A stretch of 63,648 nt of DNA, the filler included, from Chthonomonadaceae bacterium (GTDB lineage Bacteria; Armatimonadota; Chthonomonadetes; Chthonomonadales; Chthonomonadaceae): the NCBI GenBank assembly GCA_035650735.1. It is 4 parts of 4 records of this genome, joined end to end, with 100 filler letters (N's around TTAATTAATTAA, not from the genome) between each part and the next. Parts side by side here need not be neighbours in the genome. Positions count along the whole stretch, not along the records: positions 14,287 to 36,397 come from DASRGZ010000155.1; 3 more parts are not named here. The stretch is one strand, 5' to 3'. The number at the start of each line of letters is the position of its first letter. The stretch's first letter is position 1. Made by a program: the position numbers and the translations under genes. The notes below the pieces were generated by a model, which did not search any database, was not told the DNA's origin, and was given only the letters and a program-made list of their open reading frames with translations. This document shows positions 13,524-54,750 of this stretch, piece by piece.

Positions 13524-13730
13524 AGCATTAGGGGGCACAAACAGCAAAGCCACCAAGCGCATTAGCGTCCGGTGGCTCAGAATGGAGATGATCGGTTGGA
13601 AAAGCGGAGGCTTTTGGGAGACCTTGTTTCGGAAGGCGAGACTTCCGCGCATCGAGGCTTGTGCCTCAAGCACCGCTGGCATCTCCTGGCCCGGTTGCTG
13701 GATGCTCTCCTGAGCATCGCTCCTAATGCT
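13524..13730 (-). ncRNA. Candidate structured ncRNA / 5' leader
   Basis: 5' AGCATTAGG pairs with 3' CCTAATGCT; internal helices GATGCTC/GAGCATC, CAGCAA/TTGCTG, GGAGATG/CATCTCC, GAGGC/GCCTC, AGCCACC/GGTGGCT; begins at the predicted +1. Confidence 0.5.
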
Positions 13731-13736
13731 GTCTAA

Positions 13737-14186: not shown

Positions 14187-14286
14187 NNNNNNNNNNNNNN
14201 NNNNNNNNNNNNNNNNNNNNNNNNNNNNNNTTAATTAATTAANNNNNNNNNNNNNNNNNNNNNNNNNNNNNNNNNNNNNNNNNNNN
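14187..14286. other. Assembly gap / artificial contig linker
   Basis: N-run with TTAATTAATTAA six-frame stop linker. Confidence 0.99.
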
Positions 14287-14395
14287 GGCAGGGTTACGGC
14301 CTCTGCCTCCGCCTTGCGACATCAACATCAAGGTGGAAGGGTTGCGAATACTGGCCGTCGGCAGGGTTAGGGCCCCTGCCTCCGCCTTGCCACAG
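14287..14395. repeat. REP-like family C, two tandem copies
   Basis: GGCAGGGTTA..GCC.CTGCCTCCGCCTTGC.ACA twice; related to inverted copies at 24469-24513 and 54826-54871. Confidence 0.6.
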
Positions 14396-15213: not shown

Positions 15214-16188
15214 ATGCCTGCCTCTGCGAGACAGCCCCTATTGCTCGACACAGACATCGGCACCGATATAGATGACGTCTATGCCCTGATTCTGGGGGCG
15301 GTGTCGCCGGAGTTTGATCTGCGGGCCGTCACGGTGGTCAATAACGACGTCACGCTGCGGGCGAGGTTGGCGCGGCGCGTGCTCGACCTGCTGGGCCGTC
15401 CGGAGGTGCCGGTGAGCCTGGGTTCAGCCCTCTCGCTGACTCCCGGCGAGCGGCGCGGCTGGATGGGACATGAGGGGCTTGGCATCGCTCTTCCAGACGA
15501 GACATCGGCGGCTGCCGTTTCATCCCCTGAATCCGAGCCGATGGACGCCGCGCGGCGGATCGCCGTCTGCGCGGAAGAGGCGTATGCCGCCGGGACGCCG
15601 CTGCTCGTCTGCACGATAGGCGCCATGACCAACCTGGCCCTCGCCCTGCGCTGCTACCCGGAGTCGGCCCGGCATATCGGCCAGGTGGTATCTATGGCAG
15701 CGAATTTTGAGGGCTTCGGCCCGGAGAAGGCGCACATCGAGCACAACATCGCCTGCGACCCGGTGGCGGTGGATATTGTGTTCCGCTCTGGCCTGCCCGT
15801 TACCCTGGTCGGGCTCAACGTGACGATGCAGACGGCGATGACGCGCGAGGACGTGGACGCGCTGGAGGCTATCGGCGGGCCGCTGGCCGAAGCGCTGGTC
15901 GGAATGCACCGCGTCTGGTTTGCCGCCATTGGCGGTGACCGCTCTCCCATGCATGACGGCCTGGCCCTGGCCCAGCGCATAGACCCCACATTGCTTACCC
16001 TGATCGACGTGGTTCCCCAGGTGCTAACGCACGGACCACAAGCGGGCGTCATGACGTACACGCCGCCAGACGGCGCCACGCCGCCGTTCTGCCGCATCGC
16101 CACCGCCGTAGACGCGGCGCGCTTTCATGAGCTGCTGCAAAGCCGCGTCCGGCAGGCCGTACAGCAGGCGAAAGAACGAGCCTATTAA
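15214..16188 (+). CDS. Nucleoside hydrolase (IU-NH family)
   Basis: LDTDIGTDIDD, IGAMTNLA, EHNIACDP, MHDGLA. Confidence 0.9.
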   Translation: MPASARQPLLLDTDIGTDIDDVYALILGAVSPEFDLRAVTVVNNDVTLRARLARRVLDLLGRPEVPVSLGSALSLTPGERRGWMGHEGLGIALPDETSAAAVSSPESEPMDAARRIAVCAEEAYAAGTPLLVCTIGAMTNLALALRCYPESARHIGQVVSMAANFEGFGPEKAHIEHNIACDPVAVDIVFRSGLPVTLVGLNVTMQTAMTREDVDALEAIGGPLAEALVGMHRVWFAAIGGDRSPMHDGLALAQRIDPTLLTLIDVVPQVLTHGPQAGVMTYTPPDGATPPFCRIATAVDAARFHELLQSRVRQAVQQAKERAY

Positions 16189-16299
16189 GAGCGTCTAACA
16201 CAACCGTTCTCCCTCTCCCTGCAAGGGAGGGGGTCGGGGTGAGGGGAGAGCCTTATAGCCAAGTTGTGTTAGGGACTCTAAGGAGAAGGAGTTGGGAGG

Positions 16300-17283
16300 A
16301 TGCGCAAGGTGAAGTGGGGCGTGCTGGGCTGTGCGGCCTTCGCCAAAAGCACCGCCATTCCGGCCATGAAGCGGGCGGAGGGCGTGGAATTGGCGGGTAT
16401 CGCCAGCCGCAGCCGAGAGAAGGCGGAAGCGTTCGCCCGCGAGTTTGGCTTTCCGAAGGCGTATGGCTCCTACGAGGAGATGCTGGCCGACCCCGAAATT
16501 GAGGCGGTCTACATTCCGCTTCCCAACGGCCTGCATGCGGAATGGACCGTCAAGGCGGCGCAGGCCGGCAAGCACTCCCTGGTCGAAAAGCCGTTTGCTG
16601 CCAACCTGGAGCAGGCGCTTGCCATGGCGGAGGCGGCCCGCGCGTCTCAGGTCAAGATCATGGAAGCCTTTATGTGGCGCTTCCATCCGATGCACCAGCG
16701 CGCCCGGCAGCTTATTCGCGAGGGCGCCCTCGGTGCCGTCCGCTTTGTGCGCTCGGCCTTTACCTTTACTATTGCGCGCCAGCCCAACGTGCGGCTCGAC
16801 CCCGATCTGGCCGGCGGCGGCATCATGGATGTGGGCTGCTACTGCATCAGCGCCGTCCGCTTTCTCTTCGAGGACGAGCCCCTGCAAGTCTACGCCCACG
16901 CCGACTTCGACCCCGAATACCAGGTGGATATGCTGGCTGTCGGCCTGCTGGAGTTCCCCCAGGGCTGGGCCACCTTCGACGCCGGGTTTGCCCTGCCCTA
17001 TCGCTGCGACTATGAGGTGGTCGGAAGCAAGGGGCGAATCGTGGCGCCCAAAGCCTTTCTGCCCGGCGAAGAGGCCGAGCTGCACATCGAGATCAACGGC
17101 AAGACGACACGCGAGCCCTTCTATGGCGTCAACCAATGGGCGCTGGAGTTTGAGCATATATCGCGCAGCATCGCGGCGGGGGAGCCGCTCGCTTTCGACC
17201 CCGACGATGCCGTCAAACAGCAGAGGGTAATAGATGCCATCTTCCGCTCCACCGTTACCGGCCAACCTGAAACTATAGTATAG
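16300..17283 (+). CDS. Gfo/Idh/MocA oxidoreductase
   Basis: VYIPLPNGLH, VEKP, GGGIMDVGCY. Confidence 0.92.
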   Translation: MRKVKWGVLGCAAFAKSTAIPAMKRAEGVELAGIASRSREKAEAFAREFGFPKAYGSYEEMLADPEIEAVYIPLPNGLHAEWTVKAAQAGKHSLVEKPFAANLEQALAMAEAARASQVKIMEAFMWRFHPMHQRARQLIREGALGAVRFVRSAFTFTIARQPNVRLDPDLAGGGIMDVGCYCISAVRFLFEDEPLQVYAHADFDPEYQVDMLAVGLLEFPQGWATFDAGFALPYRCDYEVVGSKGRIVAPKAFLPGEEAELHIEINGKTTREPFYGVNQWALEFEHISRSIAAGEPLAFDPDDAVKQQRVIDAIFRSTVTGQPETIV

Positions 17284-17357
17284 ATCTCAGTTGTAGTAGT
17301 AGGGAGGCGACTAATGAATGCCTCTCGGCCAACCTGAAACTATAGTATAGATCTCAG
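17259..17357 (+). repeat. Repeat-insert-repeat unit 1 (30-32-bp duplication, period 67)
   Basis: CGGCCAACCTGAAACTATAGTATAGATCTCAG at 17259-17290 and 17326-17357. Confidence 0.95.
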
Positions 17358-17379
17358 ACCTCTAGCCCAGGCCCCTTCC

Positions 17380-17602
17380 TGACCTAACCCCTCGGCCCCC
17401 TTCCCTTGTAGGGAAGGGGGACCCGACCTAGGATGGTTGCGGCCCCCATCCCCTCTCCCACGCTGCGGGAGAGGGGAGAGGCCCCCCACCCTGGCCCTCC
17501 CCCTATTCTTGGGGGAGGGGAGAGGGGAAGCCGGGTCCCCCCTTCCCTGTGAGCGAAGCGAACGCATCAGGGAAGGGAGTCGCGTAGCGACGGGTGGGGT
17601 TA
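17380..17602. repeat. Cluster of REP-like family A palindromes (CCCTCACCCC/CCCTCTCCC...GGGAGAGGGG)
   Basis: Stacked CCCTCTCCC/GGGAGAGGG and CCCTTCCC/GGGAAGGG hairpins; the family recurs near 228, 16206, 26808, 29465, 30447, 33224, 35727, 39235. Confidence 0.75.
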
Positions 17603-17622
17603 GGTCTAAGTTGCCTAAGAGC

Positions 17623-17654
17623 AAAACGACCCTGCTGTACTCTACACAGCAGGG
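17623..17654 (-). terminator. Terminator downstream of the solitary CRISPR repeat
   Basis: Minus strand: CCCTGCTGT-gtagagt-ACAGCAGGG-TCGTTTT. Confidence 0.65.
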
Positions 17655-17689
17655 CCGTCGTGTTTCTCACGCCAATAGGCCATGAGTTT

Positions 17690-17726
17690 GTTTCAACCCT
17701 CGCCCAGCCCGAAGACCGGGCGCTAC
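17690..17726 (-). CRISPR. Solitary 37-bp CRISPR repeat-like unit (type I-C-like)
   Basis: GTAGCGCCCGGTCTTCGGGCTGGGCGAGGGTTGAAAC: palindromic stem and canonical TTGAAAC 3' end; single copy, no cas genes in the window. Confidence 0.7.
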
Positions 17727-17728
17727 GA

Positions 17729-18022
17729 TTAATGCTTGCCGCCTTTATGGGCGCTGTGGGCTGCGTGACCGCTTTTGCCGGGCTTGGTCGTCAGGCTTTT
17801 GTCCATTTTGCAGGCAGAGCAGCAGTACATCGTCTTGCCCTTGATATAGACGGCGGTCGGGTTTTTGTCGGTTTTCTTGGCGCTCAGGGGCATCTTGCAG
17901 GCGGGACACATCATCACCGCAGCCGGTTTCTTCGCTTTCTTAGGCGGAGCGGCGACTGCCAGGCTAGATACCAGGGCTAGCAGCGCAACCGACATCGTAC
18001 CACGTGCAATCCAGTTCTTCAT
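17729..18022 (-). CDS. Small secreted metal-binding (YHS/TRASH-like) protein
   Basis: Signal peptide, CPAC...YCCSAC, His-rich tail. Confidence 0.65.
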   Translation of the reverse strand: MKNWIARGTMSVALLALVSSLAVAAPPKKAKKPAAVMMCPACKMPLSAKKTDKNPTAVYIKGKTMYCCSACKMDKSLTTKPGKSGHAAHSAHKGGKH

Positions 18023-18243
18023 TGTACTCCTCCCAACGTCAGGATAAGCTAAAATTAACTACAAGTCAGGGATTTTCCTGCTTGTCTGTTTTTTACGACG
18101 TAATTTTCGGTGAAATGTTGCAAACCGCCTAGCCGGATCCTAGTTGCGCAGGGAATCTCGTTGTCGAACACGAACAAGCGCGTAGGGCGCCTTCGGCTTC
18201 TCTGAGAGGCCGTCCCGGAAACCTGATTGGAGGTAGCGCAACG

Positions 18244-19341
18244 ATGGCACGCTACGAGATAACCCGACGGGAAGCGCATGGAACGATTGCCTACTACCTT
18301 ACCGATACCGCGCGCCGCGCCGAGGCCGTCCTCTATCCGGCCTTCGGCAATAACTGCGTTGAGTTCCGCACGACGCCCGATCCCGACGGCAGCGACGCCT
18401 CCGGCAGCGATAGCGCGCCGGTAGACCTGTTCGTTCCGCCAAACAACGTGGAAGAGCTGCGCAACGCCCCCTTCCATGCCGGGCAGCCGATCCTCTTCCC
18501 CTTTCCCAACCGCGTCGAAAACGGCACGTATACCTTTGAGGGCCGCACCTACCATATGGATAAGCTGTTGGCAAAGGGATGGGACAAGGGCGCAGGGCAG
18601 GCGATCCACGGGCTGGTAGGGGATAAAGAGTGGACGGTGGAGGAGGTGAGCGCGACCGAGGAGGGCGCGGTGGTGCGCGCCTTTATCCAGATGGATGCGA
18701 TTCCCGACATCTACGAACAGTATCCGTTTTCCTGCCGCCTGACCGTCACCTATCGGCTGCGCGAGGGCGTGCTGGAGATGCGGACGGAGGTGATCAACAC
18801 GGGCCAGGGCGCGCTGCCGATGGGCTTTGGCATCCACCCCTGGTTTCCGGTGGCGCTGCGGCCCGGCGTCCGGCTGACCGGCGATCCGGTCGGCATTGCG
18901 CCCGAGCAGCGCGCCGAGGCGCAGGTGCATGTGCCCGCTAGCGCCTACTGGGAGCTGCAAAAGCTGATGCCCACCGGCAAAACGATCCCTGTGGACAACC
19001 CGCCCAGCATCTATGACCTGCGCCAGTTCCGTCCGCTGGACAATCACTTTTACGACAACGTCTTTACCCAGGTGCAGCGCCGCCCAGATGGCTGGAGCGA
19101 GGGCGGGCTGCGCGACCCGGCGCAGGGGCTGGAGATGTATGTCGCCGCCGACCGGCAGTTCCGCGATTGGGTGCTCTACGCACCGCTCAATCGCCCCGTC
19201 ATCGCGCTGGAGCCCTACACCTGCACCACCAACGCTGTCAATCTACAGCCCAGAGGCATTGATGCCGGACTGATCGTGCTGCCGGCCGGGCAGACGTGGG
19301 CAGGCGCGATCCATTTCGGACTGCGCCGCATCCAGGGCTAA
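18244..19341 (+). CDS. Aldose 1-epimerase family protein
   Basis: LFPFPNRV, AIHGLV, GFGIHPWF, IALEPYT. Confidence 0.9.
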   Translation: MARYEITRREAHGTIAYYLTDTARRAEAVLYPAFGNNCVEFRTTPDPDGSDASGSDSAPVDLFVPPNNVEELRNAPFHAGQPILFPFPNRVENGTYTFEGRTYHMDKLLAKGWDKGAGQAIHGLVGDKEWTVEEVSATEEGAVVRAFIQMDAIPDIYEQYPFSCRLTVTYRLREGVLEMRTEVINTGQGALPMGFGIHPWFPVALRPGVRLTGDPVGIAPEQRAEAQVHVPASAYWELQKLMPTGKTIPVDNPPSIYDLRQFRPLDNHFYDNVFTQVQRRPDGWSEGGLRDPAQGLEMYVAADRQFRDWVLYAPLNRPVIALEPYTCTTNAVNLQPRGIDAGLIVLPAGQTWAGAIHFGLRRIQG

Positions 19342-19419
19342 AAGACCTCACCGGGCAAGTTTGCAGCAGTGGCGTACCCTTTTGCCGGCCCTTTTCTGTC
19401 TAGAGGAAAGGAGCTATCT

Positions 19420-20544
19420 ATGCTCAGGAAACGAACCGTTCGCGCCTTGATTGCCGGCCTGCTCTGCGCCTTCGCCCTGCTCGCTCGCCCGTCTGTCGCG
19501 GCGCCGCCTGTCTATAAGGTCGTGGACCTGGGCGTGTTGCCGGGGGGCGACCAATCGCTCGGATTCGGCATCGGTTACTTTGCCTCCGCTGTCGGCCGTT
19601 CCACCAATGCTTCCGGCCATAATGAGGCCTTCTACTGGGCAGGCGGCTCTATGTTCGGCCTGGGAACGCTGCCCGGATATACCGACAGCGTCGCCGAGGG
19701 AGTGACGGAATTTGCCCCGTTCTTCCCCGTGATCGTGGGCTACAGCTTCAACACGCTCGTGCCCGATGACAGCCGCGCGTTGGTAAGCGTGTTTGGTTTT
19801 ATGCTCGATCTGGGCTCCCTGGGCGGTCCGAACAGTCGCGCCCATGCTATCGCCGGTCAGGGGTTCATCGTCGGCGAGTCCCAGCTCGCGCAGGCTCCCC
19901 CCGACATTCGCCATGCCTTCCGAACGCAGCCGTTCAGCTTCCTTAATCCGCTCACCGACGACCTGGGCACGCTGGCCGGCGCCGACTCAAGCTTTGCCAC
20001 CGCCGTCAACAACGGGGCGCAGGTGACCGGGCAGTCGGGCGGCCATGCCTATCGGACCGCGCCGTTCAGCAAGATCAACCCGGCCACCGACGACCTGGGC
20101 ACGCTCGGCGGCAGCTTCAGCATCGGCTTTGGCATCAACCAGGCGGGGATTGTCGTGGGCCTGTCCAACACAGCCGACATCTCCCCAACCACCGGTGAGC
20201 CGATTGACCATGCGTTCCTGGCCGACGCGACGGGGATGCATGACCTGGGAACCGTGCCGGGCTACGAGAACAGTTCCGCCGCGGCGATCAATGACCTCAA
20301 CCAGGTCGTCGGGATTATCGGCAACGCCCCGCCCGACTTCCATGCGATGATCTGGGATAGCACACACGGTATGCGCGACTTGAACACGCTCATCAGCCCG
20401 AGGTTAGGCTGGCTGCTGCAAGCGGCGCGCGCCATCAACAATCGGGGCCAGATTGTAGGCTGGGGCCTGCATCACGGTCGGCTGCACGCCTTTCTGCTGC
20501 GTCCCTCAAGGACAGTTCCTCTGCACTCCCCAAGAAACGCATGA
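19420..20544 (+). CDS. Secreted HAF-repeat protein
   Basis: Signal peptide; repeated DLGTLGG...INxxGQVVG...HAF units. Confidence 0.85.
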   Translation: MLRKRTVRALIAGLLCAFALLARPSVAAPPVYKVVDLGVLPGGDQSLGFGIGYFASAVGRSTNASGHNEAFYWAGGSMFGLGTLPGYTDSVAEGVTEFAPFFPVIVGYSFNTLVPDDSRALVSVFGFMLDLGSLGGPNSRAHAIAGQGFIVGESQLAQAPPDIRHAFRTQPFSFLNPLTDDLGTLAGADSSFATAVNNGAQVTGQSGGHAYRTAPFSKINPATDDLGTLGGSFSIGFGINQAGIVVGLSNTADISPTTGEPIDHAFLADATGMHDLGTVPGYENSSAAAINDLNQVVGIIGNAPPDFHAMIWDSTHGMRDLNTLISPRLGWLLQAARAINNRGQIVGWGLHHGRLHAFLLRPSRTVPLHSPRNA

Positions 20545-36397: not shown

Positions 36398-36497
36398 NNN
36401 NNNNNNNNNNNNNNNNNNNNNNNNNNNNNNNNNNNNNNNNNTTAATTAATTAANNNNNNNNNNNNNNNNNNNNNNNNNNNNNNNNNNNNNNNNNNNN
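36398..36497. other. Assembly gap / artificial contig linker
   Basis: N-run with TTAATTAATTAA. Confidence 0.99.
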
Positions 36498-54650: not shown

Positions 54651-54750
54651 NNNNNNNNNNNNNNNNNNNNNNNNNNNNNNNNNNNNNNNNNNNNTTAATT
54701 AATTAANNNNNNNNNNNNNNNNNNNNNNNNNNNNNNNNNNNNNNNNNNNN
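54651..54750. other. Assembly gap / artificial contig linker
   Basis: N-run with TTAATTAATTAA. Confidence 0.99.

Follow-up and report, generated by a model that had tools for sequence, protein, structure and literature searches.

The repeat described here lies on contig C155 of a Chthonomonadaceae bacterium genome, of which the window, the 63,648-nt stretch of DNA that was analysed, holds a piece only at positions 14287–36397; all coordinates are those of the window, where runs of N at 14187–14286, 36398–36497 and 54651–54750 join separate contigs. On the minus strand, an open reading frame (ORF) of 97 amino acids (17729–18022), with a signal-like N-terminus and CxxC...CCxxC motifs, ends in a stop codon at 17729–17731, and 2 nt past it, in the 3′ untranslated region (UTR) of this host gene, begins a solitary 37-nt type I-C CRISPR repeat (17690–17726). 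By folding, the repeat forms a 9-bp stem-loop over its positions 5–26 (17701–17722), followed by an 11-nt single-stranded tail that ends in GAAAC (17690–17700), a putative 5′ handle if Cas5c cut here. Immediately 3′ of the repeat stands AAAC (17686–17689), the minimal version of a tail met repeatedly behind solitary copies. An intrinsic-terminator-like hairpin with a T-rich tail occupies 17615–17659, the hairpin itself lying at 17625–17659. An earlier note on this DNA had described the layout as a repeat, a 35-nt segment and a terminator, and both the order and the 37-mer stand; the gap, however, is shorter, because the terminator stem of 16 pairs reaches 17659, which leaves 30 nt between repeat and stem (17660–17689) and assigns 5 nt of the supposed segment to the stem. 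The 37-mer folds at −17.5 kcal/mol (z = −2.58, 4 of 200 shuffles being equally good) and the terminator hairpin at z = −5.36 (0 of 200); the weak hairpin that the note had seen in the 35-mer was found as well (z = −2.68, 2 of 200).

The single repeat at this locus is genuine. In contigs of three other DNA runs (X2, X5 and X6), the element is identical with no letter changed; the four runs compared come from two studies. No second copy was found within 16000–19500, and no Rfam family matches the repeat site. The 97-aa ORF has neither a Pfam nor a PHROG match; its homologues occur in 16 of the 24 genomes of the same family, and its Atlas feature matches to YHS/TRASH clusters score 0.82–0.85, which serves as a lead only. 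The ten neighbouring proteins belong to metabolic and transport families only, with no phage structural or integration family among them, and the synteny of the small ORF with an epimerase gene is retained in a related genome, G001. Two separate features were seen in the window: GC-rich, REP-like palindromes clustered past the terminator (about 17360–17610), which very many contigs of the DNA runs match, and a SAM-I/IV riboswitch match above the gathering score (13614–13734, minus strand) beside an IS1-like ORF at a contig end.

That the 37-mer resembles type I-C repeats had been proposed from its length, palindrome and end, together with the suggestion that it be compared with the CRISPR repeats of the genome. 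Comparison with relatives bears the resemblance out: by sequence and structure, the 37-mer is a CRISPR repeat of type I-C, arrays of the matching family stand beside cas5c, cas8c and cas7 in relatives, and the window copy has two mismatches to the repeat of the L060 array, which lies beside cas5c (two to three to the L060 and L058 repeats). A pattern search of GTDB contigs gave seven loci, six of them arrays, with the gene order cas5c-cas8c-cas7 adjoining the array at three of the seven, and family scans type the cas genes of L060, L061 and the relative G311 as I-C. A covariance model built from the copies of this genome has matches in 13 of the 24 genomes of the same family and in 5 of 16 others of the same order, and Cas5c was found in 5 of the 24. 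The I-C arrays, the covariance-model matches and the Cas5c genes of the relatives together show this family of repeats to be native to the lineage. The locus itself holds a single copy, where a type I-C array would show at least two repeats with spacers and a leader. As an observation apart, a similar short sequence lies 3′ of the last repeat in two unrelated arrays and 3′ of one solitary copy (L027, L058 and L071).

The solitary repeat belongs to a set of dispersed copies that lay outside the view of the earlier note. Scanning the genome (6.5 Mb in 224 contigs, 97.6% complete) with a profile gave 17 solitary copies at 32.6–54.3 bits, with a best score of 15.6 bits in the reversed genome; the profile was trained on the same 17 copies, and two weaker matches (21.6 and 18.5 bits) were excluded from the count. 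All 17 are intergenic by gene calls, although one touches a start codon. Every one of the 12 copies in gaps between co-directional genes is in the sense orientation (p = 0.0005), the three in convergent gaps lie 2, 8 and 10 nt past the stop of the sense gene, and both copies in divergent gaps are oriented toward the nearer gene. Among the flanking genes are glnA, a histidine phosphatase, an HD hydrolase, a macro-domain gene and several DUF1559 prepilin-type genes. The copies differ from one another by 3–17 nt, so there has been no recent burst. None lies at the end of a contig, where the remains of a broken array would be expected, and no leader was found that is common to the 17 copies or matches any of four I-C leaders.

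The tail AAAC directly follows 7 of the 17 copies in this genome and 10 of the 57 in the whole set, compared with 0.36% of control positions, and all five long AAAC-tract matches of the genome (four loci) follow a copy. Of 363 array spacers, 7 begin with AAAC, most of these from loci chosen for that motif, and the tail pattern has one match in viral contigs. A strict −10 hexamer occurs within 70 nt upstream of 16 of the 57 copies and at 5.3% of control positions, a weak signal of promoter proximity, since only 2 of the 17 copies in this genome show it and the controls come from this genome alone.

Where empty sites can be read, the copies prove to be insertions of about 37 nt without a leader and not remnants of arrays, although most empty-site alignments to other genera are too diverged for the junctions to be placed. 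In the leader of glnA, the copy is a net insertion of about 34 nt relative to four relatives, about 35 nt after the −10 box, and the repeat is absent from 29 other glnA loci; the copy in the 16S rRNA leader of G001 is a clean 37-nt insertion relative to this genome. TTC is present at or near the insertion point in the empty 16S and glnA sites. At the locus in the window, the syntenic G001 orthologue has about 41 nt between stop and terminator, and other orthologues 24–48 nt, without any repeat, and the hairpin 3′ of the G001 orthologue has outer arms similar to those of the window terminator. Since the gap is similar without the repeat, the supposed 35-nt spacer is best read as old 3′ UTR, of which the 30-nt stretch would be what now separates repeat and terminator. 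Some copies in relatives have another origin: a G004 copy (L069) occupies a site where G311 has an array and a G311 copy (L318) retains the array leader, which makes these collapsed arrays and not leaderless insertions. G311 and G313 also have a cas-free array with its leader, whose site in G004 is empty.

Three routes by which such insertions might have arisen were considered and rejected. Copies left as PAM scars were set aside because TTC precedes only 3 of 57 copies (no enrichment against 1.7%), integration of the repeat as a prespacer because no flanking duplication surrounds the copies, and reverse transcription because no RVT_1 match exists in this genome. The best identity between the flanks of the 17 copies is 0.37–0.57 (null mean 0.44, maximum 0.57), so that none has a repeat-length target duplication above the null maximum. 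Without target duplication and without enrichment of TTC upstream, neither a simple integrase route nor a PAM-scar route is supported.

The only cas locus found in this genome, on contig C93, is of type I-B with a partial III-A. Cas5c, Cas7c and Cas8c were not found, using a family search, tblastn and a custom HMM from 15 proteins for Cas5c, and tblastn for Cas8c. With an assembly of this completeness and contig number, the absence of I-C is not proven, but the genome seems to have lost it. Nor was there a match to Cas1, Cas5, Cas5c or Cas6 in five relatives that carry copies, namely G004 (one closed contig), G016 (three contigs), G013, G014 and G010. As no cognate nuclease was found in this genome or in these five, cleavage of the copies at present is unlikely. 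G311, of the same genus as G004, has a full I-C operon beside its solitary copies, and G022 combines an intact I-C locus with about 11 solitary matches. Carriers without cas genes, taken together with the full I-C operon in the genus of G004, suggest that the copies arise with I-C and outlast it.

A resident nuclease that might still act on the copies is the type I-B Cas6 encoded by this genome, and the I-B array (80 repeats of 30 nt, period 65–67) has a repeat that shares its last 8 nt with the copy consensus. Only these 8 nt are common, however, and the window copy deviates at the first of them, repeat position 30, where its 11-nt tail departs from the consensus of the 17 copies; moreover, Cas6 is matched in none of the five relatives with copies. 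We therefore give very little credence to the copies being Cas6 substrates. The locus on C93 (7900–22500; L004, L005) is a hybrid in its own right, in which the I-B genes cas6, cas7, cas5, cas3 and cas4 are followed by a truncated cas10, csm2-csm4, a TIGR02619-like gene, cas1, cas2 and the 80-repeat array, broken by an IS; none of the array spacers has a full-length match in the genome. Mini-arrays of other repeat types, without cas genes, lie on C109 (6231–6400) and C119 (60732–60850), and one spacer of the C109 array matches contig C91 exactly.

The earlier note had raised the idea of a guide: the locus would release a crRNA-like RNA of the CreA/crlRNA type that steers Cascade to a promoter, or act as an RNA anti-CRISPR (Racr). 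A repeat, a short segment and a terminator would indeed give a crRNA-sized product. Guide matches were scored with every sixth base ignored, against 30 shuffles and with the PAMs TTC, TTN and TCN, and the search for PAM-adjacent matches that the note had asked for returned nothing beyond chance: the longest PAM-proximal match of the 35-mer was 8 nt for TTC (shuffle mean 9.6, all 30 shuffles being as good), 9 nt for TTN and 9 nt for TCN, at or below the shuffles, and the best match in the cas region was 7 nt without a PAM. Over all 17 copies, one of 51 such tests beat all 30 shuffles, owing to the low-complexity AAAC tail of the copy on C128. The first 24 nt of the segment have no exact match in viral contigs, and the I-C array spacers of four relatives have only short matches to this genome among the matches listed. 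The element is not near the cas locus (they lie on C155 and C93, respectively), and none of the 14 other loci of the small ORF carries a repeat. As for an anti-CRISPR, the repeat is solitary and intergenic as a Racr would be, but its metabolic and transport neighbours are not those of a phage, prophage or plasmid, and the host offers I-B and partial III-A only, not the matching subtype. With no I-C cas gene found in the genome, both the Racr and the CreA readings fail here; the guide reading of this locus is largely refuted, and we regard it as highly improbable. As a guide the single locus is unremarkable, and the dispersed pattern is the interesting part.

Dispersal extends to the relatives, where G001 has 13 solitary copies (and a 19-repeat array), G022 about 11 (and a 14-repeat array), G004 and G016 six each, G014 seven and G010 four, among others. 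Among 54 copies of ten relatives, with flank orientation taken from blastx against the proteins of this genome, co-directional gaps hold 21 sense and 2 antisense copies, all 19 copies with one identified flank are sense, 11 lie in divergent or convergent gaps, and one is in a 16S leader without protein flanks; the 54 do not include the copy that precedes cas5c in G022, three mosaic copies of G311, the mini-array of G013 and three of the four matches of G024. The consensus of the copies varies from genome to genome, and most sites are not common to different genera. A motif made of the repeat end and AAAC twice was found at four GTDB loci (Planctomycetota, Dehalococcoidia and Chloroflexota), each time single in its 3-kb locus, and at 51 metagenome loci, 42 without exact duplicates, of which 38 are single within 1.4 kb; by eye, about 30 of the 42 fold the stem in the same register, and several AT-rich ones resemble chance. 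Genes at the GTDB and metagenome loci, read from translations, include rpsF, rpsM, groEL and tatA.

Several other arrangements were met in the relatives. Solitary degenerate repeats within I-C operons, before cas5c (L308, G022:C4 90972) and before cas2 (L060, about 9443), are candidate regulatory crRNA-like units. G311 (L325, L327) and G313 harbour a highly repeated intergenic mosaic, with dozens of matches per genome, in which pieces of the I-C repeat are joined to other short modules. In G013 (L146, C1 177675–179610), a repeat is followed by a 1.8-kb segment, which may be an element that entered at or between repeats, and then by repeat-spacer-repeat; the segment holds a 495-aa ORF that by eye is topoisomerase IB-like. 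In G004 (L329, C1 1197231–1197459), two copies flank 155 nt at a site where G311 and G313 (L330–L333) have a 459-aa gene and no repeat, so that gene loss coincides with the repeats.

By eye, the genes that follow copies include groES, rpsU, infC, glnA and rpsF, and also 16S rRNA, which raises the idea that copies in strongly expressed leaders titrate Cas5c or Cascade of an I-C system, whether resident or incoming, as a host-made swarm of Racrs, or else seed new arrays by offering a promoter and a repeat ready made. Their anatomy equals that of RacrIC1 as presented in PMC10651486, many carriers lack I-C genes, and G013, G311 and G313 have two-repeat and orphan arrays at cas-free sites. Nevertheless, intact I-C operons coexist with solitary copies in G022 and G311, and none of the 17 copies in this genome has acquired a spacer, so we consider titration or seeding improbable.

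The RNA structure of the copies gives further insight. Over the 17 copies, 92.8% of stem cells are paired, a value that 2 of 500 shuffles equalled with a pair-count control that is known to over-call on related sequences, while the mean column identity is 83%. Among 52 copies of six genomes, single stem changes comprise 27 C>T and 13 G>A (p = 0.04), an excess that may be mutational strand bias, and double stem changes comprise 23 that keep the pair and 4 that do not, which may be inherited from different donor arrays. Orthologous pairs are more telling than such pooled counts with regard to selection on RNA structure. Orthologous copies, with their stems, are retained between C176 of this genome and L093 of G001, where the coding DNA is 71% identical, and between G004 and G311 at infC and ilvE; at infC, what separates the two copies is three changes in the loop and a single compensatory exchange of A-U and G-C, and the tail is the same in both. 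Decayed orthologous copies are also present, on C59 of this genome and on C575 of G001.

A second kind of CRISPR-like trace lies close to the repeat. At 17259–17357 (plus strand), a 32-bp direct repeat copies native sequence, including the last codons of a Gfo/Idh/MocA gene, around a unique 35-bp insert; GTDB contigs contain no exact match to the duplication. Over the whole genome, periods of 61–75 nt were found for 103 of 154 unique short direct repeats, with a peak at 66–68 that corresponds to the period of the I-B array. Coding sequence makes up 81% of the genome, and 97 of 111 inserts of such scars fall in no predicted gene. Among 67 clean scars, 50 have duplications of 28–33 bp, 12 have perfect ones of 35–40 bp and 5 have a 61-nt period; a full-length genomic source was found for 8 of the 67 inserts, with CCG directly upstream in four and, with a 1-nt shift, in two more. 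About 100 scars, 17259–17357 among them, are thus candidate footprints of off-target Cas1-Cas2 integration, and the class of 35–40-bp duplications suggests that an integrase with a 37-bp ruler may once have been active in the lineage. A three-copy scar was observed at C224:43547. Since the solitary repeats have no duplications, the scars alone do not explain them.

Misfiring of the integrase on this scale makes it conceivable that the copies are neutral debris, spilled from the CRISPR machinery by a strand-biased route (array collapse, integrase errors or repair at self-targeted sites) and tolerated in non-coding DNA until they decay. The mostly lineage-specific sites, the decayed orthologous copies, the persistence of copies where no cas gene was found and the collapsed or eroding orphan arrays of G004, G311 and G313 all agree with this, and a strand-specific insertion mechanism could produce the orientation bias without any function. 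On the other hand, co-directional gaps hold 33 sense and 2 antisense copies in all, the stems are paired more fully than their column identity would suggest, one orthologous site shows a compensatory change, and the copies have neither the target duplications nor the upstream TTC that the named routes might leave. Weighing both, we find debris unlikely, though it is the foremost of the rival readings.

From these results, a hypothesis regarding the function of the copies may be put forward, towards which we lean with some reserve: they would be copies of the lineage's I-C repeat that were inserted without a leader and influence host transcripts in cis. The dispersed family, 17 copies here and 4–13 in several relatives, would stem from each lineage's own I-C repeats, and its members occupy almost only transcribed non-coding positions in the sense orientation, namely 5′ leaders, intercistronic gaps, 3′ UTRs and one rRNA leader. 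The element in the window is a leaderless I-C repeat put into the existing 3′ UTR of a gene for a small, presumably exported protein. Type I-C processing, by its geometry and biochemistry, places the Cas5c cut at the 3′ base of the repeat stem. Where I-C is present, such a cut would let the upstream mRNA end in a hairpin and free a short RNA led by the handle; where I-C is missing, as it seems to be in this genome, the repeat would be a stable hairpin relic that may protect the 3′ end of the mRNA. Processing of the mRNA in cis, which the earlier note had mentioned beside the guide, is the most plausible function for the repeat. We put forward only as a doubtful generalisation that I-C repeats form a dispersed regulatory module in several phyla, selected in the leaders and trailers of core, highly expressed transcripts, with Cas5c processing host mRNAs and pre-rRNA or being titrated by them, and with the hairpins kept in use after the loss of cas genes.

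Should the copies undergo processing, host transcripts would be substrates of a CRISPR maturation nuclease, the counterpart in nature of the mRNA processing that has been engineered with such repeats. As debris, they would still testify to an unexplained path of repeats out of arrays, and caution that chromosomal calls of solitary repeat units (SRUs) or Racrs can be false. G022 and G311, in which intact I-C and solitary copies occur together, make the question of processing directly testable.

The copies may be compared with several known systems. REP elements, too, are short hairpins present in many extragenic copies, lie in transcribed UTRs and can affect the ends of mRNAs, and REP/RAYT systems comprise hundreds of copies, paired inverted units, a 5′ GTAG tag and a Y1 transposase gene. 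The copies described here, in contrast, are CRISPR-derived, possess an 11-nt handle, are strictly oriented and number about 17 single units, 7 of which begin with GTAG, while consensus copies of other genomes begin differently; this genome has three Y1_Tnp matches. Neo-CRISPR loci formed by off-target integration were obtained in E. coli over-producing Cas1-Cas2 (Nivala et al. 2018, as cited in PMC7054753), and the duplication-insert-duplication scars found here, 17259–17357 and its kin, are like them, except that they occur in a natural genome; the parallel fails for the solitary repeats, which have no target duplication. Like RacrIC1, placed 11 nt behind a gene within a bicistronic RNA (PMC10651486; Camara-Wilpert et al. 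2023), the repeat in the window is a single I-C unit right after a stop codon within a transcript. According to the same account, however, 83% of prophage SRUs match the subtype of their host; here, there are 17 copies in a chromosomal housekeeping context, the Pfam and PHROG searches gave no acr-like or phage gene beside the element, and the matching subtype was not found in the host. The crRNA-like regulators, as characterised in bioRxiv 10.1101/2023.03.03.530964 and PMC9458426, are situated within or close to cas loci, with PAM-adjacent targets in promoters, and the former (Shmakov et al. 2023) states that repeat-like sequences are depleted elsewhere in the genome. No description of a genome-wide scatter of repeats on the sense strand was found in searches of open-access literature, although the supplements of Shmakov et al. 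may list such elements. The copies resemble these standalone repeats and CreA in being ectopic, partly degenerate and outside arrays, and those upstream of cas5c in G022 and before cas2 at L060 are placed as the accounts of crRNA-like regulators would predict; the others differ in being spread over the genome, without a target and often without cas genes. Lone repeats are known as phage decoys or as regulators within cas loci, whereas a strand-specific scatter through the UTRs of housekeeping genes, which spans unrelated phyla and often persists where cas genes are missing, is a different arrangement.
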